Shown here: positions 1,900-62,751 of the stretch, piece by piece
Layout: every line of letters begins with the position of its first letter
Position numbering within the stretch: the first letter of the stretch is position 1
Assembly (NCBI RefSeq): GCF_052425735.1
Contig: NC_135763.1
Coordinates: forward strand, 17,438,298 to 17,502,297
Length of the DNA stretch: 64,000 bases
Reading direction: 5' to 3'
Source: Oculina patagonica
Lineage: Eukaryota
The notes under the pieces: generated by a model
Databases searched by the model: none
Seen by the model: only the letters and a program-made list of their open reading frames with translations
What the model was told of the DNA's origin: nothing
Made by a program: the position numbers and the translations under genes

Positions 1900-3470
1900 T
1901 GCGAATGTCCAGAACTTCAAATCAAATTTTTTTTTCAACAAGTGCCAGCCACATTCCCCTCAACACAACCACACCGCCACCACGTCAGTTGGATCAGCAG
2001 ACGAAACATGTCAACAGCCCAAACCACAGGCATGTGACTGCCCGCAGCACCAGACACCACCCCCCAAGACGACTGAGTTCCCCTTCCCGGCAACAAAGAC
2101 CAACCGGGAACTCCTACAAGATTGGCTACTCAACCATTACAGCATATTCAACACATGTGAACATCAACAGCTCCCCCTTATGGACGGTCCCCCCATGCGA
2201 CTCATGGTGGACCCAGATGCAGAGCCTGTGGCCTATCACACCCCAATCCCTGCCCCACTCCACTGGCAAGAGGCAGTCAAAGCTGGCCTCGACCAGGACG
2301 TTGCCCTTGGTGTCTTAGAGCCTGTACCAGTCGGAGAGCCAGTGACATGGTGCCACTGCACGGTCGTGTGTCCGAAAAAGAATGGCAAACCACGTCGCAC
2401 AGTAGACTTCCAGTCACTCAACCTCCATGCTACACGCGAGACCCACCACACTCAGAGCCCATTCCACCAAGCACGCTCGGTACCCCACAACAAGAAAAAA
2501 AAAAACAGTGTTTGACTGCTGGAATGGATATCACAGCGTTCCCCTACACAACGCCGACCGCCACCTCACCACCTTCATCACTCCATGGGGATGGTACCAA
2601 TATAACACCACCCCGCAGGGATACATCGCGTCAGGAGTCGGGTACTCTCGAAGATTTGATGAGATTGTCTCCCACATCCCTGATAAGACCAAATGTATCG
2701 GTGACACCCTACTATGGGCAGATGACATCACCTGTCCAGCAGTTTACACCAAGCGGTCAACTGGCCTGACATATGCGGAAGGCACGGCATAACCCTCAAC
2801 CCTGACAAGTTTACCTTTGCAGCCGACACAGTTGAGTTCGCAGGGTTTGAGATCACCCCGGACAGTGGGCGCCCATGCGCAAAGTACCTTGATGCCATTC
2901 GCCACTTCCCAACCCCAAGCAGCATCACTGACATGCGCTCTTGGTTCAGCTTGGTCAACCAAGTATCATATGCCTTCGCAGCAACTGAATGCATGCTTCC
3001 ATTCCGTAAGTCACTGAGACCTGGGACCCCATTCCTGTGGAACGATGAACTCAACCGATTATTCGAAGCGTCTAAATTAGCTATCATCACGGAAGTAAAA
3101 CAATTCGTCAAATACATCACACGTGTTGATGGCTCTGGAAGAATGACACTCAGAAACCGCAAATTCCTCCGCAAGTATGTACCAGTCCAGACCAGACCCC
3201 CACCTCGCCTACTAAGTGATGAACTCAGACTTGCAGGTACAACAGTCAAGGCCACACCCTCCACACCAAGACCCCTGACCCCGACAAAGCAGCCTACCAA
3301 TGCAGCTGAACCACCAAACCCAGCAGCCCTGAGCCACAAAAGCAGGGATTTGTGCGATGCACCACAACCCCCTGGAACAGAACCACAACCGGCCACAACC
3401 CCAGGACCACCCGCACCAGTTTTGCTTGAAGCCAGCCCAGCCACTAGCCTCCCACGCAGTTGTTCTTAGG
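1900..3470 (+). pseudogene. retroelement pol fragment (reverse-transcriptase region), frameshifted relic
   Basis: Frames 2180, 2347, 2427 and 2933 together spell MDGPPMRLMVDPDAEPVAYHTPIP...GEPVTWCHCTVVCPKKNGKPRRTVDFQSLN...FDCWNGYHSVPL...TTFITPWGWYQY...LLWADDI...SWFSLVNQVSYAFA. These are classic RT motifs (the YxDD box degraded to LWADDI), split over 3 frames with stops. Confidence 0.75.
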
Positions 3471-5151
3471 GGTGATCGTGTTTCACTCCTCCCCACTTGA
3501 ACTATGAACTTGAACTATGCACAGTGTTATATATACTCCGTTGTTTTGTTATTATCAGTCTTTACCGACCCCTCTATGCACTGTTAAAATTGCAAGGAAC
3601 ACTAAAGACTTAAGGGGAGATAGAGAAATATGTGGTCAACCTATATAGAGACTGGGACTAGCCCGGTCATGTCATGTCATGTCAAGTAGAGACTGGGACT
3701 AGCCAGGTCAAATCTTACGTGTAGTTATTTGTAGTCGCTCATCATTTGGATTTGTTATGCTCGAATAAATCATCATTTAACAAGGAAATTGATGAACTCT
3801 TATCTATATACATGTAGCTTGTCTATAATTAAAGACCTTCTAAAGACTGTCTAAAGCCTCGCGGCCTTTTAACACCCCCTCCCCCCCCCCATGAGCATTT
3901 AACAGCATGCAGTGTACAGTACTGTAAATGCTATATATACCTTGGTTGTTGAGTCATTTCTGCTGACGCTTCACCACCACTCTCATCTCTATTAATACTG
4001 GTTAAGTTCTGGTTTTAGAAAAAGAAAAAAAAAGCACGGAAATTACATAATTAATCCAAACTACTCAAGCCTGATTGTTCAAAGGATTTAGCATGAATTT
4101 TGACTTCAGTTTGTAACACTTCAGTGAGGTATTCTGGTTATATTTTTGTCCATTACCTTTTACTTTGACTAATCTCAAACCTACAAACTTAAAAACAGAC
4201 TTAAAACAGACGTCTATTCATTGTGCGTAGCTGTTTATAGCTTTATTATCTTAGAATGACTGGTTTCATGTTACCGCGACTCTCAAGGCGGATACCTCTC
4301 TAAGGCAGTCAGTTGGGGCTACATAATCAAATTTAAATCAAGGAGATACAAAATGTTCACATCAAATGTTTGGCTAATTTATTTTAACATGTTTATTTGC
4401 TTTTTACATGGCTTGCGTACAGGTACTAACATTCTCACTAAAGAGTAAAATATCTGTCACATCTCCCTGGTATAAGCAATAAAAAAGAAAAACAAAAAAT
4501 CAATTAATCATAGCCAAACAAAACAAACGCCAACCTGTCTGAATTTCTGCCTTTCTCTTCTTCGGTGAAAAAATAAGCCGATCAAACACATTGTTTCCCC
4601 TGTTAAATAATAACAAATCTATTATTAATAAGTAACTACAATTTGGTAAGTACTGTTAGTATGTTTTCCACTGATACCATCAGTGCACAGGAGTGCCATA
4701 GATGCCTAGATGCCGCCTAGATGCACTTTGCTTAAAAATCACCATACAATGAAATGGTCACAGTTAGGAGAACTGCAAACATGTACAGTCCCTCTAGCAA
4801 TATTATGTGCACAGTCCATAAATGTACAGGTGTCGCTTTAGTGTATGGACACTGGCAGTTAGTCGCAAGTGTGTTTATTAATTAATGATATCATTAACTT
4901 ATAGTACTGCTGATTACATCAATCAGAATCTGATCTTACCAATAAACATTAGGCCAGTTTGAAACCAAGGGTGGTCAAATTTGTGCACTTCATTACCATG
5001 TTCATCCTTCAAACCCTTGGCTCTAAACAAATTGAACAGAACATGTACATTTTTTGCATCTGAGAACTACAACTGTAGGCATTATAACATTCTGTTAGCA
5101 ATATTTGATTTATTGATTAAAGGGTAAGCTTTCTGAAAATCAATTTCTACA

Positions 5152-6759: not shown

Positions 6760-6832
6760 GCCCGGTTAGCTCAGTCGGTAGAGCATCAGACTTTTAATCT
6801 GAGGGTCAAGGGTTCAAGTCCCTTATCGGGCG
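6760..6832 (+). tRNA. tRNA-Lys (anticodon UUU)
   Basis: 73 nt, GCCCGGTTAGCTCAGTCGGTAGAGCATCAGACTTTTAATCTGAGGGTCAAGGGTTCAAGTCCCTTATCGGGCG. It has a 7-bp acceptor stem, a GCTC/GAGC D stem, an anticodon loop CTTTTAA, a GGTTCAAGTCC T-arm and a G discriminator. It is near-identical to metazoan tRNA-Lys-TTT. Confidence 0.93.
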
Positions 6833-12877: not shown

Positions 12878-13160
12878 GTTTCTTGAACGTGCCCCACCTG
12901 GTTGGAAGCCAGAACCACAGGAACCCCCTCCTCCCCCTGTGGCCTCCCAGTTAGCTGCAGCGGCGGCTGCTGCACAGCAGCTCGTCAACAAGCGGGGCCC
13001 TCCTGGTGAAAGGCACTTCCGCCAGCAGCAGCCACCTCCCATGAAGGCGTGCCTGTCCTGCCACCAGCAGATTCACAGGAATGCCCCCATCTGCCCGTTG
13101 TGTAAAGCAAAGAGTCGTTCTCGACACCCAAAGAAAACCAAGAGAAAGCATGAAGACTGA
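12878..13160 (+). CDS. ZC4H2: ZC4H2 terminal exon (…[44 protein letters not shown])
   Basis: Acceptor CCCAG at 12877 and stop TGA at 13158-13160. The C4H2 zinc-finger box [28 protein letters not shown] is essentially identical to human ZC4H2. Confidence 0.92.
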
Positions 13161-14270
13161 GAGAGTTGATGACGGTGGTCGTGTAAGAGGGCTTATTAAA
13201 AGACGGGCTTCAATAGAGAATCAAGTAGATTTTGGCAAGTATTCGTATTTACTGAAACGTTTAATATAAGAAAAACGTTTCTGTTAGGCGCTATTTAAAA
13301 TTGTATTCTGTGTACTGAACTACCGCTTAAGCTAAATGTTCGTAGAGTCATTCGAAATCACTTTTTCGTGTTAAAGGACTTCCCGAAGTCAAACTTGCGT
13401 TGCTGCGCGCATCTTATGACCGCAAAATAAAACAACTCGCTCCAAAAATACACTGAGATACATATTTATGAAACAGTTATTTAAAGAATTGTTAGAATAT
13501 ATAATCATTAATATATGCTAGCCTTATTTATTTAATATTGAGTTAGGCACAATTTGTAATCATAAGTGACGTCGAGATAAAAAGAACTTAAAATCTATGA
13601 CTACACGTAAAGTTTTAACAGTTAGTAATAGTTTACTTGATATAATCATGCTGTAATCGAGAATATTTAAAGAAAAGTAGTTGTCAAGTTATTAAATAAA
13701 TGTATAAACGAAAAGAAAAGTACTGCTTATTTGTAGTTACGTTCGGTCCGTTCTTTTTCTGCGAGCAACTTCCTGGGAAAGATTTCCGTATAGCCGCATG
13801 CTTGAGTATACATTCATGTACGTGTGCAATTTCTTCTATATACGTCTTCACACGCGAACAGCAGTCATCATGAAAAGAACGAGATTAAAGAGGCTATGTC
13901 ACGGTATTTTAAGTCATTTTTCGGATTCCTTTCAAATTGAAGGACAACCTCAAATAGACTGTCCACAGCCTCTCGATTTTTCAACGCAGAACGCAAACGA
14001 AGCGAGCGCGAAGCTCGAGCGCGAAGCTCGAGCGCGCGTCGACTGATTTTTCAACGCAAAAACGCAAACGAAGCGAGCGCGAGCGCGCGCGGGGAGGGGG
14101 GCGGGAAGCGATCAAGAACACGAAAAAATAGAGGGGTATGGACAGTCTAAACCTCAAAATAATAGTTTTCTAACGTAGAAAAACACCAATGGAGAAATAA
14201 GGAACAAAAAATAATGGAGGACGGTTTCAACTGACAAAGCGGATTACAGCAAGGCGCCCAAAAGTGTGAC

Positions 14271-14390
14271 CACTTTTAATTTATTCACATTCTTTCGTGC
14301 AGATTTTTCAATCAGAAGTCAACTGCAAGCTATCCACGGCTTTTGATTGGATTAAATCTGCACGAAAGAATGTTAATAAATTAAAAGTGG
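14271..14390. repeat. hairpin/foldback: 37-bp perfect-ish inverted arms (CCACTTTTAATTTATTCACATTCTTTCGTGCAGATTT) around a ~45-bp spacer
   Basis: 14271-14307 is the reverse complement of 14354-14390. Confidence 0.8.
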
Positions 14391-14750
14391 AGAAATAGGT
14401 TTGAGGTTCCATCTTAGACGCGAAATAAAATACCGCAGTTTTTGTTCTTGTTTTTTGTTTGTTTGTTGGTTTTTTCAGCATTTACCTTTGGGTTACTATT
14501 TAAAGTGACAGCTGAAGGTTTCCAATTGTTTATTTAGCGTTGTTTTTTCGACTTTTAACTAGTTTTCAACTTCAAATGACATTTCTTGACGATAAATTGC
14601 GTTAGTGTTGTTGGTCAAATTGGTTTTCAGGTTAAATCTATTCCCAGCCTCAGTCAGTCTGTTTCAACCTAAAGATGACGTCGGTGACAATTAGAAAGTA
14701 ATCCAAACTGACAAAACTTAAGACGTATTCTAAACAGTTATTGGATGAGG

Positions 14751-14856
14751 TTTTTGTGATATCCGGAATAATCAAGGTCGAGCAAGTGTTATCAGCCGAA
14801 GCCGAAGGCTGAGGCTGATAACACTTACCGAGATCTTGATTATATATCACAAAAAC
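14751..14856. repeat. palindromic MITE-like hairpin with ~45-bp arms and loop core GCCGAAGCCGAAGGCTGAGGC (family member 1)
   Basis: TTTTTGTGATAT...TGTTATCAGCC | loop | GGCTGATAACA...ATATCACAAAAAC. The same loop and stem-base recur at 62454-62550 in the opposite orientation. Confidence 0.75.
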
Positions 14857-15214
14857 CGATTTAATAATTGTTTTATTATACATTGTTTTTCTGAAAAAAA
14901 AAATAAGGACAAAACGACTACAACCGTTCTACTAATTCCTACTTGTCGTCTTGCTTTTGAATGCTTTTCTCTCAAGGTATTCGTGGAATAGTTCCTCCGC
15001 AATCTTTGTCGGTCATTCTGTGTTTTCCGAGAATTTATTGTCCAGCAATTTTTCAATTTAGGTTAATGTTTTGCTCGGTTGAAGAAGCGAATCGACGAAC
15101 TATGAATTTCCTTCGTTGTCAGATTTGTCCCACATTCCTCTCGGAAATCATGCATTGCGCGCCCAACCTACAGAGTAGCGAATAATCTGCTAGCAGATTA
15201 TTCACTAACACCGT

Positions 15215-15434
15215 ATTTTCTCGATTAAACGCCCCCGGCGTTTATTTCAAACTTGGCCCTATAGGGCCGGCGTTTATTTGAATTCAGGAGTTTTTTCATT
15301 ATATTTTACAGCTATATAATTAGACATTATTTTTAAAGCATATTCAACCTTTAATAATTGTGTAAGGGGTTGATTTTCAAATACAACTTGGAGACCCGGC
15401 GTTTATTCGGGGCCCGGCGTTTAATCGAGAAAAT
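15215..15434. mobile_element. small MITE-like element, TIR ATTTTCTCGATTAAACGCC(C)GG...
   Basis: 15215-15262 is the reverse complement of 15388-15434. The GC-rich CCCGGCGTTTAT motif is repeated internally 4 times. Confidence 0.6.
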
Positions 15435-16434
15435 GTGTAGGTTGCGCTGATTCTCGGAATTAACTGTAGGCTCTTAGCCAATGAGAAGACAGATAGTGAC
15501 TACAATGTATAATAATAAGAGTTAACTTCAGGTTGAAACAGTGTGACGTATCGTAACGTAGGTTGGCAACAGATGTAACCTGAAAACCTGGAAAACCAAT
15601 TCGCACTTTAACAATTAGTACTGCATATTTTTCTGAAAGCGCTCGTGAAATCGCCAAACGCGCGAAAATTTGACTGATGAATGAAAATTATATCGTGAAT
15701 TGCATGTAATACGCGCGCAATTGATTGCAAAACGAGCCGTTCAGTCGTAAAAAAGAAGAACAATTGAAGCCTAATTGCCATGTCAACAGACCGTGAATAC
15801 AAACCTCTTGACTGGTTGATTTCTATTGTTTACGTACGTCATTAAACTATATTGAATTTTAAAGCAGGATCAATGAAGAAAGCGATATGTTTTCTTACAA
15901 GATATATTTGTTTTTTCAAAGTTTTTAATTTGTTGAGTACACTCAAAGAGGGAAAGGGCGCTCTATAAGTTTGTAAGATTTCTGGCAATGATAAGATTTA
16001 TTGATAAAAATTGATGTATTCAAAGAAACAAAAGATTCGCCGATTTGCTTTCTTGAACAAAAGAGCTATAATAATTGATTATGGCAAGGCTGAATAATCA
16101 AAATACCGCATACTGTTTGGTGCATGGGCAAGCAGGAACTAGTACGCCGAGCGATCGATCGTAGCGGTTTAATGTACCAAAGTAGGAACACTTAGCACGT
16201 TCATTGAACAGCGAAATGGGCTTGTAAGAAGCCCTAGATTAGCAAAATTGGCGCGGAGATGGTATTTAAAAGAACGTAAACGCAGTCATTTACTGTAAAC
16301 ATAACGGAGTGTGACATCTAGCCATAGAGTTTGGTTGCTACCGTACCTCACTCTATCGCCTTGAAAGATATTTGATGAACAGACGGCTACCAATGGACTG
16401 TTAATTAATTTCCAACTATTTCTGAAGTTTCGAG

Positions 16435-16904
16435 ATGGGAAACGGTAACACAAAGGCGGGAACTGTTCGAAAAGTTATGCAAGCTAACAAGAAATTCAGA
16501 GCGGCGCTTCAGCTTTGGGAAGACGATCGCTCCGATAGAGAGCCGTGGAAAACGATTCTCAGGAATGGACCGTCGGCTGTGTACCGCAAAAGAAAGGAAC
16601 TTATTGAATTCAAAGACGAAGAATTGATGGAATACTTCAACAATCTTCTCCAAGGACATATACAAGCAGATTCAAGATGGAGTCTTCCAACAAGAGAAAT
16701 TGCTATATTTTTGAGTTCAACTTTCACAGACATGACAATAGAACGGGACTTGCTAATGGAAGACGTGTATCCATATTTGCGAGAATTTTGTCGACGGTTA
16801 GGGTATAATTTCAGTGTAGCGGACATGAGGTGGGGAGTGCGTGACGAGATGACAGACGAACATCAAGCGGTAGAGATTTGTGTGACAGAAGTTCAAAGGT
16901 GCAG
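16435..16904 (+). CDS. NWD1/NWD2-like (NACHT and WD repeat) gene, exon 1: MGNGNTKAG… with an N-myristoylation-type MGxxxT motif and the start of a DUF4062-like region (IAIFLSSTFTDMTIERDLLMEDVYPYLREF)
   Basis: ATG at 16435, a 470-nt open frame and a GTAAGT donor at 16905. IFxSSTFxDMxxERDxL is the DUF4062 signature that starts NWD1 proteins. Confidence 0.8.
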
Positions 16905-17215
16905 GTAAGTAAATTGTTCATGCGTTTATGATTGTTTAGGCAAATAATAGTTAAAAAATAGCAGAGTGCATTTCTCTTCCTAAATGGCGTGTGAGTTTTT
17001 TAAACAACTTTACAAAAAAAAAAAACACATATTAATTGTTTTAAGATGTGATGTCCGTGACGTGCATGTATTCGCAAGAAAATCTAAAAATAATGTTGCT
17101 TAGTAACCTTTAAATAAATAATTGAACGTGTACAAAAATCTGTTATCATTTTTCAATACTTTATAAATGTTGAAGGATAAGGTCTCGATTAGTTGCGAAC
17201 CAATTTACCACCTAT

Positions 17216-17700
17216 CTTATTACATGAAATTTTCGCGACACGTTAATTTCGCGAATTTCGCGATTCTAAAAAAATCGAGAAATTAAAGTAAGTGTCGCGA
17301 ACATAACATGACGCAAACAATAAAGTGACTAACATATGTCAATAATAAAAAAAGAATAAGTTTATTACCACTGAAGGAAGGAATCTTCAATGTAAATTGA
17401 TGTTGTCGTCAATCGATTCAAGAACAATTACTCATGCACGACTTACAAGCATGACCTACTTGTAGACATTGTGAGAACTGCTCTCTTGTTGCTCTCGCCG
17501 AGAGTTTGTCCCACCGTTGCGTTTTTGTTAATTTTGGCGTAATTGTTCTTTCCTCGTTTCAATTAATTCAAAGACATATGTTAAAATAAAATATTATTGC
17601 CAAGGAAATGTTAATTGAAACGCGAAATTAAAGTGATTCACAATACAATATTTTCGCAAAATCGCGAAATTTAAGTGTCGCGAAAATTTCATGTAATAAG
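17216..17700. mobile_element. MITE-like element, ~485 bp, TIR CTTATTACATGAAATTTTCGCGACAC(G)TTAATTTCGCGAATTTCGCGA
   Basis: 17216-17265 is the reverse complement of 17650-17700. Confidence 0.65.
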
Positions 17701-18320
17701 GTACTTAGTATTTTAGCAAACAGAGATGTCCCAAAGATAGTGACTTGCTAAACTCCATAAAGTGTCTTGCCTACGTAATGCCATTATCAAAAGTATTGCC
17801 TTATTAGGAAAAAAGGTTTACTTCCGGGTGGTTAGCAAATGTTCACAAATGTTTATGAAGATCTTATAAACTATTTTTCCTGTCAGTAATTGATTGACAT
17901 ATATCTGGTGGTAGTTGTGCACAACAGTGTCTAGCATATGTACAATAGTGTATACGGATAAGGGCATAAGGGTCCATAAGAAGAATGAACACACTCGTTC
18001 ATACTGCGCTGTCCTTACTTAGGAATCACCGTTATATAATCATGAGCGTAAACACAAGAAGAACGAACAATTTTGTTTTCTTGTGCCTATGACAGTGTTA
18101 TGCCAATGCAACGACTACGAGGACAACCTAAGGAGAATAAGTTTGTTCGTTTTTCTTATGCTTGTGTATATGCTCAGTAAAAACCACTGCAGCCTTAAGA
18201 AAACAACATAAGAAGGACCTCTGCTGATTAGACCATTTTGCTTTTATGTGTGCGATAAAACAATAATCACAAAGTTCATCATTAATTTGCGTTAATCTAC
18301 ACTTGATGCTGTTTTACCAG

Positions 18321-18968
18321 GAAAGAGTCTGTAGGACCTTACATGGTTTGTCTCATTGGTGACAAGTACGGCTACAGACCAGTTCCTGTCAAGATTGACG
18401 AGGAAGTCTTTGAAATGCTTTTGGGAAGCGTCAAGAGTAACAGTGGGAATAAAAACGCCTCCGAATTATTGGAAAAATGGTACAAACTGGATGAAAACAG
18501 CGTCCCTGCAGCCTACGTCTTACTGCCGATTTCAACATTCTTTCCTCACGCTTATAAGCACGCTGTTGACGTCGATGATGCAAAGGCGAAGCAAGAAAGA
18601 CAACAATGGTGGCAAACTCTGGTGACAATGAGAGAAGCTTTGAAAAAGGCTGCGAGTCAGATAGATTTTACCGCCTTTCCTGGCTGTGCCTTGACGGAGG
18701 ACGATTTTAAGATATCAGTGACAGAAGAGGAAATTACAACTGGTATTAAAGGGGAGGACATGGACCCTAATTACATGTTTCTATTTCTTCGGTCCCTTAA
18801 CGGGTTAGAAGAAGTTAATCCGAATAATAATGGATTTGTAAAGCGTTTTGTAGATGTTGACGAGCGTGGGAGGAAATCGCAAGCTACAACTGGAGATGAT
18901 GCAAAATGCTTGCTGGACAAGCTCAAGGATGACTGCCAAGGGTTTATACCAAAAAATAACATCTGCAG
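18321..18968 (+). CDS. NWD-like exon 2 (…KESVGPYMVCLIGDKYGYRPVPVKIDEEVFEMLL…DKLKDDCQGFIPKNNIC)
   Basis: Acceptor at 18320 and donor GT at 18969. The phase is continuous with exon 1, and the sequence continues the DUF4062-like domain. Confidence 0.8.
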
Positions 18969-19793
18969 GTGAAAAAACAACTTAACTTAATATTCTAATT
19001 ACATCTTGTTAGATGCATCTCACAAATTTGGGTCGCAGATTGACGTCTTGAGTTGCGACATCTAGCTCCATGATTTCTTCATTTTAGCTTAGGAAAAGAA
19101 AAGCAACGAACTTTACAAATTATGATGATTAAGTCGAGGAGTGTGTAATTTGGCTTATAAATTTGTGTTTCAAAGCTTCTTATATTTTCTGAATTTTATA
19201 TAGTGTCCAGATATTTTTGTTATATAGAGTTGTCGAGAAAAGCTCTTTATCTAAATCTGATACCAAATGGAATTGCACATGCATGTAGGTGAACCGATAT
19301 GCCATGTGCTTTGTTTCAACCGATAGGAAAACCCTGCAAAATGTTCCTCCAAAGTTTTGCACATCTTAAAAGCATTTGGTGTTTGTAAACCCGTCTGCCT
19401 AAAGGTTCATAGTCATATTCAGTGACTTATCGGGTAAAGGCACTCAGTCTCTTATGAAGGGCAGGTGTGGCTTGGCCATTCACAATGTAAATATATTGCT
19501 ACTTTGACTGGCAACTGTAAAAAAAAAATCTCATTCTAAACACCCTTCAGTTAACATAAAATTGTAAACACGGACTTGATCAATGCGGACAGACTGCACT
19601 TTTTTGAAAACTTTTTTTTAGTCAGTAACTCGCTGATGAAAATGGTATGAGAAGCTAGCATCCGAAATTCATGAAGCCAGAATAAGAGAATAAGATGAAC
19701 AAATCAAAGTCCCTTTAATTTCAACGATATGAAATACTACTACAGAGGTTTATTCTAGTCCTCGTTTAATTTGGATACTGTTGTGTCTTTCAG

Positions 19794-20442: not shown

Positions 20443-20542
20443 GTTCGTGAACACATATTTATTATCTGTAGTGAAGGACGGGGTTTGCTAAAGGTTGGGT
20501 GTTAAAATAGTACTAACTTTACAACACTGTCCTTTTTTAAAT

Positions 20543-20646
20543 CGCCTTTTCTAACCAAAGAGAAGTCAAGACACAAAAGTAACGTCATTGTAAGGTATCA
20601 ATGACGTTACTTTTGTGTCTTGACTTTACTTTGGTTAGAAAAGGCG
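20543..20646. repeat. 48-bp-arm palindromic hairpin (MITE-like) in an NWD intron
   Basis: CGCCTTTTCTAACCAAAGAGAAGTCAAGACACAAAAGTAACGTCATTG and its reverse complement are separated by 8 bp. Confidence 0.8.
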
Positions 20647-20870
20647 ATTCACTATGGCCAGAAGTTAAACGATTCAACAAAGCAACAATGCTGTACGTCT
20701 AGAACGGATTATAACCCCCAACTTTTATAGCTGAGCTACTGGATGTATTTGGCGGGGGAGACGTTTTTGTTGGTTTGTTTGTTTGTTCTGTTGTTTTTGT
20801 TACCTAGAACTATTAATTTTAAGAATGGTTTTTTTTTTCTTTGTTACTTAACTCACTATTCATTTGTTAG

Positions 20871-40789: not shown

Positions 40790-43534
40790 TCACTTGTAGC
40801 AGGTACAAGATTTCACCACCTCTTGAAGCTTATCGATGTAAGGCTTCTTGCGGGTTATCGTGACATTTGAAACATCAATGCCTAGAAAGATGCAGATGTC
40901 GCGCAAAACGGTAACACGAAAAGTAGCTGCAAGTTTGCCACTGGAGGCAAGCTCGCAGATGTTATAAGTGTCATGCATAATGGGATGCTGAAGAGCTACT
41001 AAATTGGACACATCTCTGCGCATCTCACTTAACGCTTCTTCATGGCGCGCACAGATCTCTTCTTCCTCGTCTTCCTCGGTCACAACATCAACATTTCGTT
41101 TGGCAGCCAGTCTGGAAAAAAAGCCCCGGATTTGCTGCGTTGTCAGGAATTCGCTGAATGTGAACAGACGATTGCCATTGGAATCTTTGGCAGTCCTCAT
41201 TTCTTTGGACACAGTGGCCGGGTCAAGCTTTCTTCCTGTTTTTTGCCCTATCTCAAATTTCTTTATGAGGTAATCTTTTTGATTGGAATTGAATCTTTTC
41301 CCAACAAAGGAACTCTTGAGCGCCCAGCCCATGGACATAGGAGGATTCTGAACATCACAACTGCTATCTTTTCCGAGGCACGCCACGTCGCCTAGTTCCT
41401 CGACTTTGGATCCACCCTTTTCAAGCTCATAGGCATACCTTAGCATTGCTCTGTCCAGAAGTGTCTCCTGTTCCAAAGCACGTTTGTGCTTTCCACATTG
41501 AAGGTGTTGCTCAAGACTGGAGTACCTTTGATATGTCATGATGCAACCTTCTTCAGGACAAGAAAACAATCCAGAATTGGCGTTTCCCTCGTCGCTGGCA
41601 CTTCCGTCATCATCGCCGTCAGACGAGGTAACTTCTGCAGGGCATTTAACCTTCCGAGGTTTCAAATCGACAAATGGCAAATGAGTGCTCCTTTCACGAT
41701 CAGTTCCGATATCGACAATCAAGTGACGTTCGCCATCGCTATCAGTCACCTGGAATTTGCTCCAAGGAATTAATTTTCCCGGGCCAATTCCGTATGCCCT
41801 TCACACCCTCAAACAATCGCTTTCATACTGGATGTTGTTAACAAAACTAACACCTTCCCATCTGACGGCTTTCTGCGTTTGCAACTGAGGCGTTTCTACC
41901 TCAATGTCATTGCCTTCATTGAGGTAGATTTGCATGTGGGATTTAATGGTCGCCGCTTTTCGGTCACATGCTCCCTTGCCACCTTGTGGATCCGAAAAAT
42001 CCATTCTCTTCAAGGTAACACCGGCTTTATCTGCTACCACTTTAGCACCAACAATGGTCGAAACACAGTGATAGCACCCCGCGTTGTCCTGTCTGTAGAA
42101 TACTGATTCAAGGTTTGGCATACCAATCTTTAACTTTGTGAGAACATCCGCCATTATGTCAAGCACTGAGTGACTGTCCTGGTTGCAAGCTTGAAAAATG
42201 TGCACGAATGCCATCGTCTCGATTTGTCGGTTTGGTCGCTGCCTTAGTGCCACTGTGATGTGCCAAGGTATCCCTCGCTTGGCAAACCAGTCGCTTTGAC
42301 TTTCTCTATACTTTCTGGGAAGGAACTTCATGGCCCAATCTTGGACCAAGAAAACAGAATTTTCCTCTAACATTTCCATTACATCGACTCTGGCCTCATC
42401 TTGGTTAACTGCACGAAGAAGGTGAGCTTTCCAGGCACTGATGCTACGCCTTGCTTGTTCAGTGTTAAAGGTCAACTCGTCCATTTCTTCGCTTTCTGTT
42501 GCAATTAGCTTAAGGGCGTCTTCTATTTCTCCAATGCTCACCTCCACCAGGCTGCAACGATCACACACCCCATCATGGATATGACTACATTCTCCCTGGT
42601 ATTCGGAGCATTTGGCATCACTGAGCGCAAAACATCTACAATGGTCTGGGACAGTCGACGACTCAGAAACATGTACCTTAAAAAATCAAAGAGGATCGTA
42701 TGAGAAATTACGCTTTAAAAACAAGCACGTGTTAGTCTCAAAGCTGTTACCATGTTTCAAGGGTTATTTGTTGTCCTTACCGTGAAGTCACTTTTCAGGT
42801 AACGCTTGGCCAATTTCAGTTGCTCCTTTCTTTGTTTCGCCCAGGACATACCCATTCCAAGCTCTCCCAGTCGCTCAGCCACAATTTCAAGTTCCTCAAA
42901 CGCTTTCGCGCCAGAAGCAGTGATGTAGTCCAGACCTTGTAAGGATTTCCTCACGGAGGCAGAACAGACGTCAAGAATTCGAAGCAAAGAGCTTCGGCTC
43001 AAGCAGGTTATGCCTGACTCCTTGCAGTACTCTTGATATTCTGTGCTATACGTTCTGGAATCATCACGTCCTGATAACATTGGGTACTGCGATCACTTCA
43101 CCGGAACTCAAAGTAAGGTTTTTCTGTCCAAATGGTAAATCTTGAATGATGTGCTGACTGGTTATGAAACAAATGAAGTGGTCAACCATTTCCGGGGAAA
43201 CGTACATTCTCTTCTGGATAGGTTTAGGAACAGGAGAGCCTCTACCATGGATCAGCAGGTGCTGTCTGGCAGAATCGATACTGTGCGAGGTTTGAATCCA
43301 CCCAACCAGATAGACATTGCGACTGTATCCCACTGGGTAGCATTTGTAGCATTCGCTAAGACAGTAAAAAGATGACTTTTTTGTTTCTGAGGATGTTGAG
43401 GGAAAATGCTGATTTATTGCCTTTGAAGAGACCAGTTTGTCCCACAATTTATCAGAATCTTCGCCAGCTATAACTTCCAATGAGGCGGCTACAGCCTCAC
43501 TCGCCTTCTTTACATAGTAACGTTTGTTCTTTCG
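40790..43534 (-). pseudogene. putative DDE/D transposase-like gene (unknown superfamily). At least 2 exons are joined by a GTAAGG…TTTTTTAAG intron (42677-42780), and the frame is interrupted by an in-frame TGA (41798-41800) and a frameshift near 43064-43080
   Basis: Blocks on the complement strand: 43534-43064 (KK/R-rich NLS-like start RRRKNKRYYVKK…); 43080-42781 (…KSLQGLDYITASGAKAFEEL…AKRYLKSDFT|GTAAGG); 42676-41801 (VHVSESSTVPDHCRCFALSDAKCSEYQGECSHIHDGVCDRC…LVQDWAMKF…VFYRQDNAGCYHC…MDFSDPQGGKGACD…ESDCLRV*); 41797-40790 (…CPEEGCIMTYQRYSSLEQHLQCGKH… ending RKKPYIDKLQEVVKSCTCYK*). Confidence 0.5.
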
Positions 43535-58138: not shown

Positions 58139-58330
58139 AAAATCATGTCAGAGGATATTCCACCTACGAAGCAACACCGCTACACAGATTTAGGCTGTGA
58201 GCACGACAAGTATTCTGTTGACATATACAGCTTCTTGCAGCCTGGCCAGCAGGAAGGAAATTGGTCACGTAAACAGCTCTTCCTGTACATAACAAGAGCT
58301 GTAGAAAACAACAGAAAGGTCTTCCTACAG
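58139..58330 (+). CDS. unknown + strand gene, internal exon (KIMSEDIPPTKQHRYTDLGCEHDKYSVDIYSFLQPGQQEGNWSRKQLFLYITRAVENNRKVFLQ)
   Basis: Acceptor TGTTGCAG at 58138, donor GTATTT at 58331, 64 codons. Confidence 0.55.
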
Positions 58331-58371
58331 GTATTTATTTCACTTACCATTACCATTACCATTACCATCGC

Positions 58372-58427
<56 letters not shown>

Positions 58428-58438
58428 CTGCCATCATG

Positions 58439-58511
<73 letters not shown>

Positions 58512-58522
58512 CTGCCATCATG

Positions 58523-58598
<76 letters not shown>

Positions 58599-58609
58599 CT
58601 GCCATCATG

Positions 58610-58658
<49 letters not shown>

Positions 58659-58712
58659 CTGCCATCATGATCATCATTATCATCATCATCATCATCCTCA
58701 TCATCATCATTA
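58372..58712. repeat. (ATC)n microsatellite organised as a higher-order repeat, with a CACTGCCATCATGATC punctuation every ~60-90 bp; it starts 40 bp after the exon donor at 58331
   Basis: Read directly. It explains the poly-Ile/Asp/Met ORFs at 58121, 58180 and 58340. Confidence 0.95.
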
Positions 58713-59367
58713 GAACAATTGAAACAGCAGGAATAACAAAGCGAGTGCATTAGTCAAGAGCTGGAGAATTCAACGAATTGGACAATTACCTTCATCATGT
58801 TTTGCTCGTTTCATCTTTTATTTATTATAAACTTCTAAAACAATCATCATAACGATCATTTTAACCTTCATTACTACTAAAGTCCTTCAAAAGTAATATA
58901 CGAAAACTGGACTTGTCATGTTCACTATAATTTATAATTTTCCCGTCTAGTGTTTAGTGATCAACTATTCATCGAAGTGGAGGTGGCTTTTGGTGAATAC
59001 TTACCGAGCCGCGAAGCGGCGAGGTAAATATCATTTACAATTTATAGCTCTTTTATATAGGGCGTATTTATTTGAAACCCACGCGTATAGCCGTCGCATT
59101 TGGTCGTTGGAATTTTTTTTTGTTTCGAGCTAAAAACAATAAAACATTCCAGCGAGCAAATGCGACCGTTACACGCGTATATTGCAATATAATTTGATTT
59201 GATATTTCCTATTTATCTGTCTGTCTATCTGTCTGTCTACTGAGAATTTCTTCGTAGCTCCCCATATTACAGTTTAATCTATATTTGTATTGAAATTAAT
59301 TTGGAAGAACGAATTTCGATGTTAGCCACGTAACATAACATGACAATGATTATTCGTTCGTTTCCAG

Positions 59368-60904: not shown

Positions 60905-61125
60905 TAAAAACCCGCGAGTAGAAACCTAATAGGCCATTTTCGAGTTACCCTTTGCCTCTGTTTGAAAACGACTCTACGTGCGAAACCATTCATATGAAAA
61001 TAAGTTTCACCTACAAGTCTATTTTCATGCAAATTAAACTCATTTTCATTTGAATGGTTTTGCACATGGACTCGTTTTCAAACAGAGGCAAAGGGTAACT
61101 CGGAAATGGCCTATTTTTAGAACCT
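60905..61125. repeat. foldback/MITE-like hairpin: ~45-bp arms (AGGCCATTTTCGAGTTACCCTTTGCCTCTGTTTGAAAACGACTC) plus a nested inner palindrome
   Basis: 60921-60966 is the reverse complement of 61069-61117. Inside, CATATGAAAATAAGTTTCAC is mirrored by CATTTTCATTTGAATGG. Confidence 0.75.
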
Positions 61126-62453
61126 GTCAGACTAACATTTGCCAGTTAGACCACCTCAATATAAGAACCTCTTTAGCCTAAAATTTGGAAACAGTTTCTT
61201 ATTTTCTGAAATCGATTAAAAATGTAATAGGCATGGCAGTAAAAAAAAATGTTATATTCTGAATAAGGACTTTAAAATTTTCTTGATTAGACAGTGCTTC
61301 AGATTTAATATATTACAGTCATTTTTACATAAACACTTATTTGATATGCAAATTTCATATAAGGAAAAGGCTGACTTGCTAGAAAATTCTATTAGCAACA
61401 ATGGATTTTTTTTCAGAAAATAAGAACCTATTAAGAACCTAAGTAGCCTATTTTTGCTCTAAATAAACTTATTTTAGAACCTGTGTAGGCTAATTTTGAA
61501 AAATGTAGGTTATTAATCGCGGTTTCTTACTGCAGGCTTTTACAGTTATTGCCTGAAATTATCACTCAGCCGCTAAAAGGGCCATGCTTAGTACAAACTC
61601 AGGCTGTCCTCCCGTGATTGTCTGAAAGTGTTGTTTTGGAGGGGGATATTTAACAAATCGATTACCTTTTTCTATGGTCTGTACTTTTAGAGAAATTACG
61701 TCATAAATTGTTCAAATTTTCAAGTGGAATCGGAGCAAAATTTTAGAGATTTCATCGGGTGATCTCTATGGTACATAAAAAGTGTAGACCGTGATAAAAT
61801 GTGGTCGATTTATTTCTTGCATTAGTGTGAGATTGTGCAAGCGCGTGACAGCACAACTCTGCGGTTTTCGTTTATTGGAAAGGTTAGGATACCTTCCAAA
61901 GATTTTTCAAAGTTACCTTGCGCATGCGTTGCGTGAGTTCCCGTCATTTTTAGAGTCTACATTCTCATTGACAGAAATAAGCGAGAGAATTATCTCAGTT
62001 ATCGTAATTTAAAGGAAGTCGTATAAATCGTATAATTATAAACACCTACCACTCCGGCTCGCCATAATAAGAGGTGTATCAACTTTGATAGGAAGGGAGT
62101 ACAATTGGTGTATATTACGGTACAGAGCTGCATTACACACTAATGTAAAAGATTTAGAGAAAATAATATCATTTAAACAAAGAGTCTAGTAACACACAAA
62201 CATACCTAAAACAAAGAAGATCCCAGAGCAGGAAACAATACATGGGACCTTGAAGGAAAGGGCGGATTTATTTTTATACTGAATGAATTATGTAAATTAT
62301 TTAAGATAAAAGGGAAAGATATGGAGGAGTTGAATTAACTGTTCGATAGAAAATGCTACAATAATACTTTTTTAACATTTCTATAGCGTTTCAAATAGGA
62401 ATGTGTATAGGATATTTTTTTACAAACAAAAAGCAAACGTTAATGACTTCGTT

Positions 62454-62550
62454 GATAGCGATAATTATCAAGGCCTCAGTTTCTGTTATCCGCCTCAGCC
62501 TTCGGCTTCGGCAGATAACAGAAACTTTGGCCTTGATAATTATCGCTATC
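62454..62550. repeat. palindromic hairpin, family member 2, with loop core GCCTCAGCCTTCGGCTTCGGC (the reverse complement of the 14798-14818 loop)
   Basis: GATAGCGATAATTATCAAGGCC…TGTTATC | loop | AGATAACAGAAACTTTGGCCTTGATAATTATCGCTATC. Confidence 0.75.
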
Positions 62551-62751
62551 ATGCTCAACCTCATCCAATAATTGTTAAATAGTAATGAAAATAATCCAAA
62601 ACGCGGTTGAGTATTGAGCAACGGTAAACAAACATAAATGTATCCACAATGATTTACGCAATTCAGACTTACATAAGATTAGAATTTTAATTTAAAAAAT
62701 CTGTACGAGTCATAGGTAGTATTTCAAACAATGGAAGACTACTTTAGCGAG

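Follow-up and report, generated by a model that had tools for sequence, protein, structure and literature searches.

The window examined here, a 64-kb stretch of genomic DNA from a stony coral, contains two copies of one 21-nt sequence in opposite orientations, each at the tip of a long hairpin, and the two hairpins share this tip while their outer stems differ. What kind of element keeps the tip of its hairpin and lets the stem change? The evidence set out below indicates that both hairpins (site 1 and site 2) are, with high probability, the structured terminal module of a stony-coral family of Cryptons, and that the hairpin probably acts in cis, most likely in a folded state.

The 21-mer and its palindromes

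The window contains exactly two copies of the 21-mer GCCGAAGCCGAAGGCTGAGGC, one at 14795–14815 on the forward strand (site 1) and one at 62492–62512 on the reverse strand (site 2). Allowing up to three mismatches gave no third match in the window, and 100 shuffles gave no match at all. A first-pass annotation had recognised this pair, exact and with one copy on each strand, and had given its flanks correctly as TGTTATCA/TGATAACA at site 1 and TGTTATC/GATAACA at site 2; its positions, 14798–14818 and 62484–62504, are shifted by 3 and 8 nt from the actual ones. It had placed both copies at the apex of palindromes with arms of about 45 bp, and folding shows that both do lie in long imperfect palindromes. 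The palindrome at site 1 (14732–14873) spans 142 nt and has a folding energy of −74.6 kcal/mol (z = −14.4); that at site 2 (62453–62551) has 48-nt arms that are 90% complementary and a folding energy of −79.6 kcal/mol.

The 21-mer is not the loop of these hairpins, as had been thought. It pairs with itself (GCC-GA-AGCC / GGCT-GA-GGC), leaving only a 3-nt GAA loop and one 2×2 internal loop of the form G·A/A·G. The outer stems do differ, but they are not unrelated, since about 140 nt of the two sites align at about 76% identity. Beyond the stretch of palindrome first described, the two elements also have the 5′ end AACARTTATTGGATGAGGTT in common. A literature search for the 21-mer returned nothing.

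A high-copy repeat family

The exact 21-mer was found in at least 120 coral metagenome contigs, a sample whose selection by exact apex biases copy counts and orientation frequencies. One source of the matches, dataset Ga0126343, is from a Cyphastrea coral (bioRxiv 10.1101/391565). Both sites are copies of a high-copy stony-coral repeat. Flank alignment resolved at least four subfamilies, A (with a variant, A2), B, C and D, with consensus elements of 388–412 bp. Each consensus has a hairpin module of 145–150 nt (H) at its 5′ end, followed by a second module (X). Module X is bracketed by inverted repeats of 11–16 bp (TTATTATACATTGAAC / GTTCAATGTATAATAA in A); it holds internal direct repeats, carries the motif TGACGTCA, and its CCAAT box lies about 30 nt away from the terminal TATAATAA. 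Position counts over 110 copies give ACAATTATTGG as the 5′ consensus at 95% or more. The junction between the modules in the consensus, CCAATAATTGT-TTTATTAT-ACAAT..., repeats the junction of the joined element ends in inverted form. We rejected the idea that module X is an independent MITE: 84 X modules adjoin a hairpin, and only two partial solo fragments were seen.

We note that 49 of the 122 exact-apex copies (the 120 metagenome loci listed and the two in the window) end at a contig edge, often inside the hairpin, which suggests that the palindrome breaks short-read assemblies. Searching genome contigs for the 5′ terminus gave 49 loci, most of them chance-like matches in bacteria, and 10 coral-derived contigs; viral contigs gave no match to the terminus. 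The coral-like contigs are filed under bacterial MAGs (L125, L131, L137, L138, L143, L155, L156, L164 and L165 with accessions CBDDTI01..., and L140 with accession CBDAUV01...). Those bearing the transposon have 38–46% G+C and are labelled ‘MAG: bacterium isolate 3a0c8501...’ and as an ‘Anaerolineae’ MAG; they look like mis-binned host DNA.

The elements at site 1 and site 2

Comparison with the consensuses shows the hairpins to be decayed copies belonging to two subfamilies, A2 and D. Site 1 is a complete non-autonomous element of subfamily A2, 782 bp long (14734–15515, forward strand) and comprising both modules. When the subfamily consensus was searched against the window by blastn, site 1 matched at 14734–14885 and 15444–15515. 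With flanks and ends separated by a slash, the element reads TATTCTAAA / ACAGTTATTGG ... CAATGTATAATAA / TAAGAGTTAAC, and there is no target-site duplication at this site. Its module H (14734–14871, forward strand) has 138 nt, agrees with the A2 consensus at 133 of 145 positions and has a 5-nt deletion in the right arm. The module starts with the 5′ terminal arm ACAGTTATTGG (14734–14744), the proposed arm of a recombinase core site, and ends with an inverted copy of that arm, AATAATTGT (14863–14871). Next to the terminus is the left side of a tandem G·A site (TGAG, with the GA at 14747–14748); the partner GA (14858–14859) lies in CGA-T, one base having been deleted in site 1. In the middle of the stem CGAG (14779–14782) stands opposite CGAG (14829–14832) in a 2×2 loop of tandem G·A. 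The apex, GCCGAAGCC-GAA-GGCTGAGGC (14795–14815), is a 9-bp stem with a tandem G·A mismatch, closed by the GAA triloop at 14804–14806.

The junction that follows, AATAATTGT-TTTATTAT-ACATTG (14863–14885, forward strand), is an inverted copy of the joined element ends and contains the left inverted repeat of module X (TTATTATACATTG). Module X (14872–15515, forward strand) is presumably a remnant of the recombinase promoter and terminus, and is about 390 bp longer than in the A consensus. It has a CCAAT box at 15478–15482 and finishes with the right inverted repeat and terminus CAATGTATAATAA at 15503–15515.

Site 2 is a hairpin module alone (62453–62575, reverse strand) of subfamily D, whose stem type is also that of the autonomous elements discussed below; neither module X nor a recombinase gene is present there. 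Its 5′ arm, ACAATTATTGG, is at 62565–62575 and a degenerate 3′ terminus at about 62436–62452, both on the reverse strand. The apex (62492–62512, with the loop at 62501–62503) reads on the forward strand as the exact reverse complement of the site 1 apex.

The window is eukaryotic in character, with 36–45% G+C, few long ORFs, a tRNA-Lys of eukaryotic appearance and exons of a DUF4062/NACHT-like gene. Site 1 lies between the C-terminal exon of a zf-C4H2-like gene (12939–13160) and the first exons of a DUF4062/NACHT-like gene (16435–18972); the CCAAT, promoter-like end of the element (15478–15515) faces the DUF4062 gene, which starts at 16435. A tRNA gene at 6760–6832 on the forward strand (74.2 bits) is assigned to lysine from its UUU anticodon loop. 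Four inverted repeats unrelated to the family are also present: 14270–14390 (37-nt arms, 97%, 47-nt spacer), 20540–20649 (51-nt arms, 96%), 59072–59187 (54-nt arms, 80%) and 60928–61115 (80-nt arms, 91%). These are probably other hairpin-forming repeats. Two adjacent intronless ORFs of 255 and 319 aa (40790–42568, reverse strand) sit in an island of 44.6% G+C; they gave no Pfam match and may be transposon-borne. A long simple repeat at 58180–58750 translates to runs of Ile on one strand and of Met on the other.

Recombinase-encoding members

One coral locus (L087) holds a 1787-bp element (684–2470) with the same 5′ and 3′ termini, the same inverted repeats and CCAAT box, and a D-type hairpin with the exact apex. 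Against the window this element matches site 2 (62453–62574) at 90% over 123 nt and site 1 (14735–14882) at 79% over 158 nt by blastn. Its only long ORF, of 442 codons on the opposite strand, has Pfam matches to DUF3504 (6.5e-12) and Phage_integrase (29.8 bits, cut-off 27.1); the Pfam scan covered ten ORFs, chosen mostly among the longest in the fetched coral loci. The segments HSIRAT and GHRNESSIRSY, which would supply the pattern HxxR...H...Y, align weakly with box II of XerA (E = 0.86), and the first catalytic arginine was placed by eye at RRGRQNLREL. The protein has 378 relatives at E ≤ 1e-30, the nearest named of which are cnidarian ‘KIAA1958-like’ proteins. No copy of the recombinase was found in the 64-kb window by tblastn.

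Six further loci have the same layout, running from the terminus through ATTGG, repeated TGACGTCA, the recombinase and the junction to a 145-nt hairpin. Recombinase identity is 99% in L172 and L173, whose flanks differ on both sides, so these are separate insertions; the autonomous copies have apparently been active recently, to judge from such near-identical recombinases at different loci. Identity falls to 80% in L174 and 51% in L178, both with an exact apex, and is 65% in L176 and 56% in L177, where the apex loop is GCA. In L175 (70%) no hairpin was found within 1.2 kb. Since the long relatives carry a tyrosine recombinase between the same termini, we assign the family to the Crypton type, with MITE-like derivatives.

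Upstream of the recombinase ATG, L172 to L178 have CCAAT/ATTGG about 30 nt from the terminus at conserved spacing, and two to five copies of TGACGTCA. This gene-proximal end, with its CCAAT box and TGACGTCA copies, is presumably the recombinase promoter, kept in the 400-bp derivatives. A distant tyrosine-recombinase remnant (32–38% identity) lies in L003 (600–1525, reverse strand), about 500 nt upstream of a B-type element, and may be from another Crypton lineage.

Ends and insertion sites

Copy-by-copy tests for target-site duplications of TA, TAA/TTA (TWA) or TTAA found none. Matching flanks occur in only a few of the copies with both ends listed, for example L018, L021 and L137. Position counts give an upstream flank consensus, AATAATAA, similar to the 3′ end of the element and a downstream one, TAAAnnTTATTGG, similar to its 5′ start. 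The autonomous elements L172 to L174 likewise lack a duplication and have flanks resembling the element ends. Such a pattern is what would be expected if the junction of a circle recombined with a similar genomic site. A head-to-tail dimer is present in L137; this locus contains four hairpin elements within 2.5 kb (1900–4900), the dimer among them, along with two tip deletions and a recombinase fragment at 4562–4854.

Small size, high copy number, the hairpin shape and AT-rich TAA/TTA-like junctions would all be familiar from cut-and-paste MITEs of the Tourist or Stowaway kind, moved by a DDE transposase, whose subfamilies would differ in internal sequence and have terminal inverted repeats in common. 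However, the junction trinucleotides are not duplicated, neither end of the element (ACAATTATTGG... and ...GTATAATAA) is an inverted repeat of the other, and some members encode a recombinase. We attach next to no probability to such an origin.

A rolling-circle element of the Helentron/HINE type, read on the other strand, would also account for much of the architecture. A 5′ inverted repeat, a subterminal 3′ repeat, central repeats and a 3′ palindrome match the organisation of HINEs (PMC4067079), with TTATTATACATTGAAC / GTTCAATGTATAATAA bracketing module X ahead of the palindrome; T-rich insertion sites, the lack of target-site duplications and tandem copies would fit as well, and Helentrons are known in Cnidaria. 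The coral stem, however, has about 65 bp and not 5–10 bp, the palindrome reaches the terminus itself, and the flanks resemble joined element ends and not simple T runs. The ten ORFs scanned contain no Rep/helicase domain, while in at least seven loci a tyrosine recombinase lies between the same ends. Because the enzyme encoded is a tyrosine recombinase, we take a Helentron/HINE to be excluded, with only a residual probability left to it.

Two related loci were compared with site 1. In L171 the gene order of the site 1 region is kept and the element is missing. L170 (GCA_044670265.1) shares the sequence downstream of site 1, but the 250 nt upstream do not align, and as the locus ends 250 nt upstream of the shared sequence it is uninformative on site 1. 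Neither locus offers a clean empty site that can be aligned.

Structure and conservation of the hairpin

The consensus hairpins form 63–65 base pairs with folding energies of −94 to −110 kcal/mol, and have a few single-base mismatches and bulges besides their tandem G·A sites. All 2×2 loops, in every consensus and in every recombinase-linked hairpin, are of the G·A type and mostly YGAR/YGAR. Three or four such sites are found per hairpin: TGAG/CGAA near the terminus, a second site that is TGAG/CGAAA in B and D (its counterpart in C folds as GAG/CGAT), CGAG/CGAG in mid-stem and CGAA/TGAG in the apex. G·A-type sites are present in all the hairpins of L172–L174 and L176–L178, where the stems differ yet again; variants are TAAG/CGAA in L177 and CAGAG/CGAGG in the mid-stem of L176–L178. 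The triloop is GAA in the consensuses and GAA or GCA in the recombinase-linked hairpins, both of which are GNA. Both tandem sheared G·A pairs in the context 5′-YGAR-3′ and triloops of the form C(GNA)G have unusual stability in DNA.

Identity between subfamily consensuses is 100% in the apex and at the CGAG sites, 82–100% at the termini and 43–85% in the stems. On this comparison the hairpin is built from a few sequence islands, namely the termini ACAATTATTGG / CCAATAATTGT, the tandem G·A 2×2 loops, the GC-rich apex and the GNA triloop, joined by helices that are free to change as long as pairing is kept. The islands persist even between elements with recombinases only 51% identical. The 21-mer is common to sites 1 and 2 because it is one of the few islands that every propagating lineage keeps. 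The feature is real, and the puzzle of a conserved loop on a variable stem is thereby explained.

Maintenance of the pairing is evident in an alignment of 43 copies. Here 92.4% of cells are paired, and sliding the partner columns lowers this to 28–42%; compensatory substitutions on both sides are seen in 32 of 64 pairs, and the covariation score is 0.312 against 0.04–0.07. An independent RNAalifold analysis found compensatory changes in 24 of 47 pairs. Covariation alone is no proof of structural selection, because arm-to-arm conversion or template switching also maintains complementarity.

The two strands are not equivalent. The G·A-bearing strand is the more stable, by 9–16 kcal/mol with RNA parameters and by 2.4–4.2 kcal/mol with DNA parameters. 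On this strand the five consensus hairpins have nine G·T wobbles against one A·C mismatch, a count taken from the folds of the individual consensuses, the pooled alignment being confounded by the structure of subfamily A imposed on the others; the wobbles are partly common to related consensuses, and few independent sites lie behind the polarity. The one A·C mismatch propagated on the favoured strand belongs to subfamily C.

Decay and rearrangement of inserted copies

A second sample, unbiased for the apex, consists of 12 copies found by their 5′ terminus in the mis-binned coral contigs. In these copies the apex is 12.7% diverged, compared with 4.7% for the rest of the hairpin; leaving out two tip deletions brings the apex divergence to 6.7%, and the apex is exact in 2 of the 12. 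Inserted copies decay neutrally. As they have diverged at the apex, its conservation belongs to the propagating source lineages. The first-pass annotation had argued against a single decaying consensus; this view is right between subfamilies (apex 100%, stems 43–85%) but does not extend to inserted copies, which decay at the apex too.

These data also bear on whether the hairpins are host structured RNAs, such as precursors of miRNAs or hairpin RNAs. The hairpins are long and very stable, and they give weak Rfam matches to hairpin-shaped models, mostly of plant MIR precursors. Searched with gathering and E-value thresholds, the window and four loci returned one tRNA and otherwise only sub-threshold hairpin matches, some of these on both strands, and the miRNA-like reading raised at the outset gains no support here. 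The best match, MIR2630, scored 31.5 and 58.3 bits (58.3 on both strands) against a threshold of 144. A host RNA is further contradicted by inserted copies that decay at the apex at least as fast as elsewhere and by conservation that follows transposon lineages and not genomic loci; L171 has no site 1 element, and L170 has no trace of one in its 250 upstream nt. We regard a host RNA as very unlikely, though incidental production of small RNAs from the hairpins is possible. Readings as a SINE, a retrozyme or a hammerhead were rejected, there being no ribozyme match and no Pol III boxes seen.

Two kinds of rearrangement recur among the copies. In about 9 of 95 exact-apex copies among the matches listed, the apex alone is flipped, and the arms, G·A sites and termini keep their orientation. 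Apex inversion occurs in all four subfamilies, and also in L131 and L137, the names of which suggest long-read assembly. In other copies (L087, L037, L080, L012 and L165) the hairpin has been symmetrised, one arm having been copied from the other. Arm-to-arm copying does happen and removes G·A sites, which the lineages nevertheless keep. In L165 (5960–6230) the hairpin is at the centre of a larger palindrome extending at least 60 nt into the unique flanks on both sides, and its apex is fully symmetrised (GCCGAAGCC-TTC-GGCTTCGGC). This palindrome is either a fold-back artefact of assembly or reading, or a genuine inverted duplication that started from the hairpin.

The main rival to our reading accepts a Crypton but gives the folded state no function: the termini and apex would be ordinary duplex binding sites for the recombinase or a host factor, and the arms would be kept alike by conversion or template switching. 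The symmetrised copies show that one arm can be copied from the other, the apex-only inversion in about 10% of copies indicates rearrangement of DNA at the tip, and typical tyrosine recombinases use duplex sites with inverted arms (PMC3212892). Conversion, however, makes the arms perfectly complementary and would remove the G·A mismatches, three or four of which persist in all subfamilies and down to 51% recombinase identity. The mismatches are, moreover, all purine–purine on one strand and mostly YGAR, and the loop varies within GNA only. We therefore consider the rival possible but doubtful.

Proposed mechanism

Making the assumption that the family moves as its recombinase suggests, the element would be excised as a circle, and the joined ends, ...TGTATAATAA|ACAATTATTGG..., would recombine site-specifically with similar genomic sites. 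On this site-specific view the target before insertion would have the form ...ATAATAA-ACAATTATT-like..., and no duplication would arise. The termini would be the arms of the recombinase core site. The hairpin, placed directly against the recombination site, would act in cis, either as part of the site or as an accessory structure. It would most likely be read folded, either with the top strand single-stranded or in an extruded cruciform, by analogy with recombination sites that are used in this state; the conserved tip hints that the folded hairpin is needed for movement of the element. The stability of sheared G·A pairs and GNA loops in DNA, together with the existence of recombinases acting on folded single strands, makes a DNA hairpin likelier than an RNA hairpin. 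A bolder version, in which this Crypton clade uses a folded single-stranded or cruciform hairpin within the recombination site itself, with the G·A pairs and the GNA tip setting strand choice and recognition, seems to us unlikely as it stands. If it were true, the coral elements would offer a eukaryotic equivalent of recombination at integron attC and CTX-phage attP(+), and the Crypton mechanism, which is biochemically uncharacterised, would gain in the hairpin its first concrete cis-element.

Among eukaryotic DNA transposons no class is less well understood than the Cryptons, whose mechanism is presented in the Crypton literature searched only as a proposed model (PMC3212892). The coral clade has sharply defined ends, abundant miniature derivatives and a strand-asymmetric hairpin beside the presumed crossover site. 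With defined ends, miniatures, autonomous copies and a conserved hairpin in hand, the mechanism becomes directly testable, and the terminus and apex together give a signature for annotating such elements in coral genomes. The first-pass annotation came close to the evidence when it suggested a binding site or a small transposon, palindromic and with conserved motifs inside. Its view did not reach to the hairpin as the 5′ module of an element of about 400 bp, to the termini and G·A sites as further conserved parts, or to members encoding a recombinase.

Comparison with known systems

In its conserved tip, found in two orientations on a long hairpin with purine–purine mismatch bubbles, the coral element recalls the terminal hairpins of parvoviruses. 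These exist as flip and flop isomers, and the left end of MVM has a GA/GAA bubble. The coral elements differ in that inversion is confined to the apex and to about 10% of copies, in being integrated and interspersed, and in having no Rep/NS1 gene.

A parallel in the enzyme is found in integron attC and CTX-phage attP(+), folded single strands that are recombined by tyrosine recombinases with one strand favoured. Each is an imperfect palindrome of 60–150 nt in which the structure, base boxes and non-paired positions are kept and the stem sequence varies. Those systems are bacterial and their single-strand recombination has been demonstrated, whereas in the coral element we infer it. The features that break the symmetry also differ, being tandem G·A mismatches and a GNA triloop in the coral hairpin, and extrahelical bases or an unpaired central spacer in the bacterial sites.

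With Helentrons and HINEs the family has in common an end repeat and a subterminal repeat, a terminal palindrome, central repeats and AT- or T-rich targets, but it encodes a tyrosine recombinase in place of Rep/helicase and its palindrome is about ten times longer (PMC4067079). The strongest likeness is to CryptonA, which is defined by a DUF3504-type tyrosine recombinase, occurs in Cnidaria and has abundant non-autonomous derivatives (Kojima & Jurka 2011, PMC3212892). Like CryptonA, the coral family has a single gene, for a tyrosine recombinase matching DUF3504 and Phage_integrase; it makes no target-site duplication and inserts at sites that share sequence with its ends, and its non-autonomous copies far outnumber the autonomous ones. 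In animal Cryptons no terminal repeats have been found and the boundaries are hard to define (PMC3212892), and the Crypton literature searched, that paper included, describes no hairpin or palindrome. Unlike the CryptonA elements described in that literature, the coral clade has a deeply conserved 145-nt terminal hairpin, inverted repeats of 11–16 bp around the gene module, and MITE-like derivatives of about 400 bp in several subfamilies.
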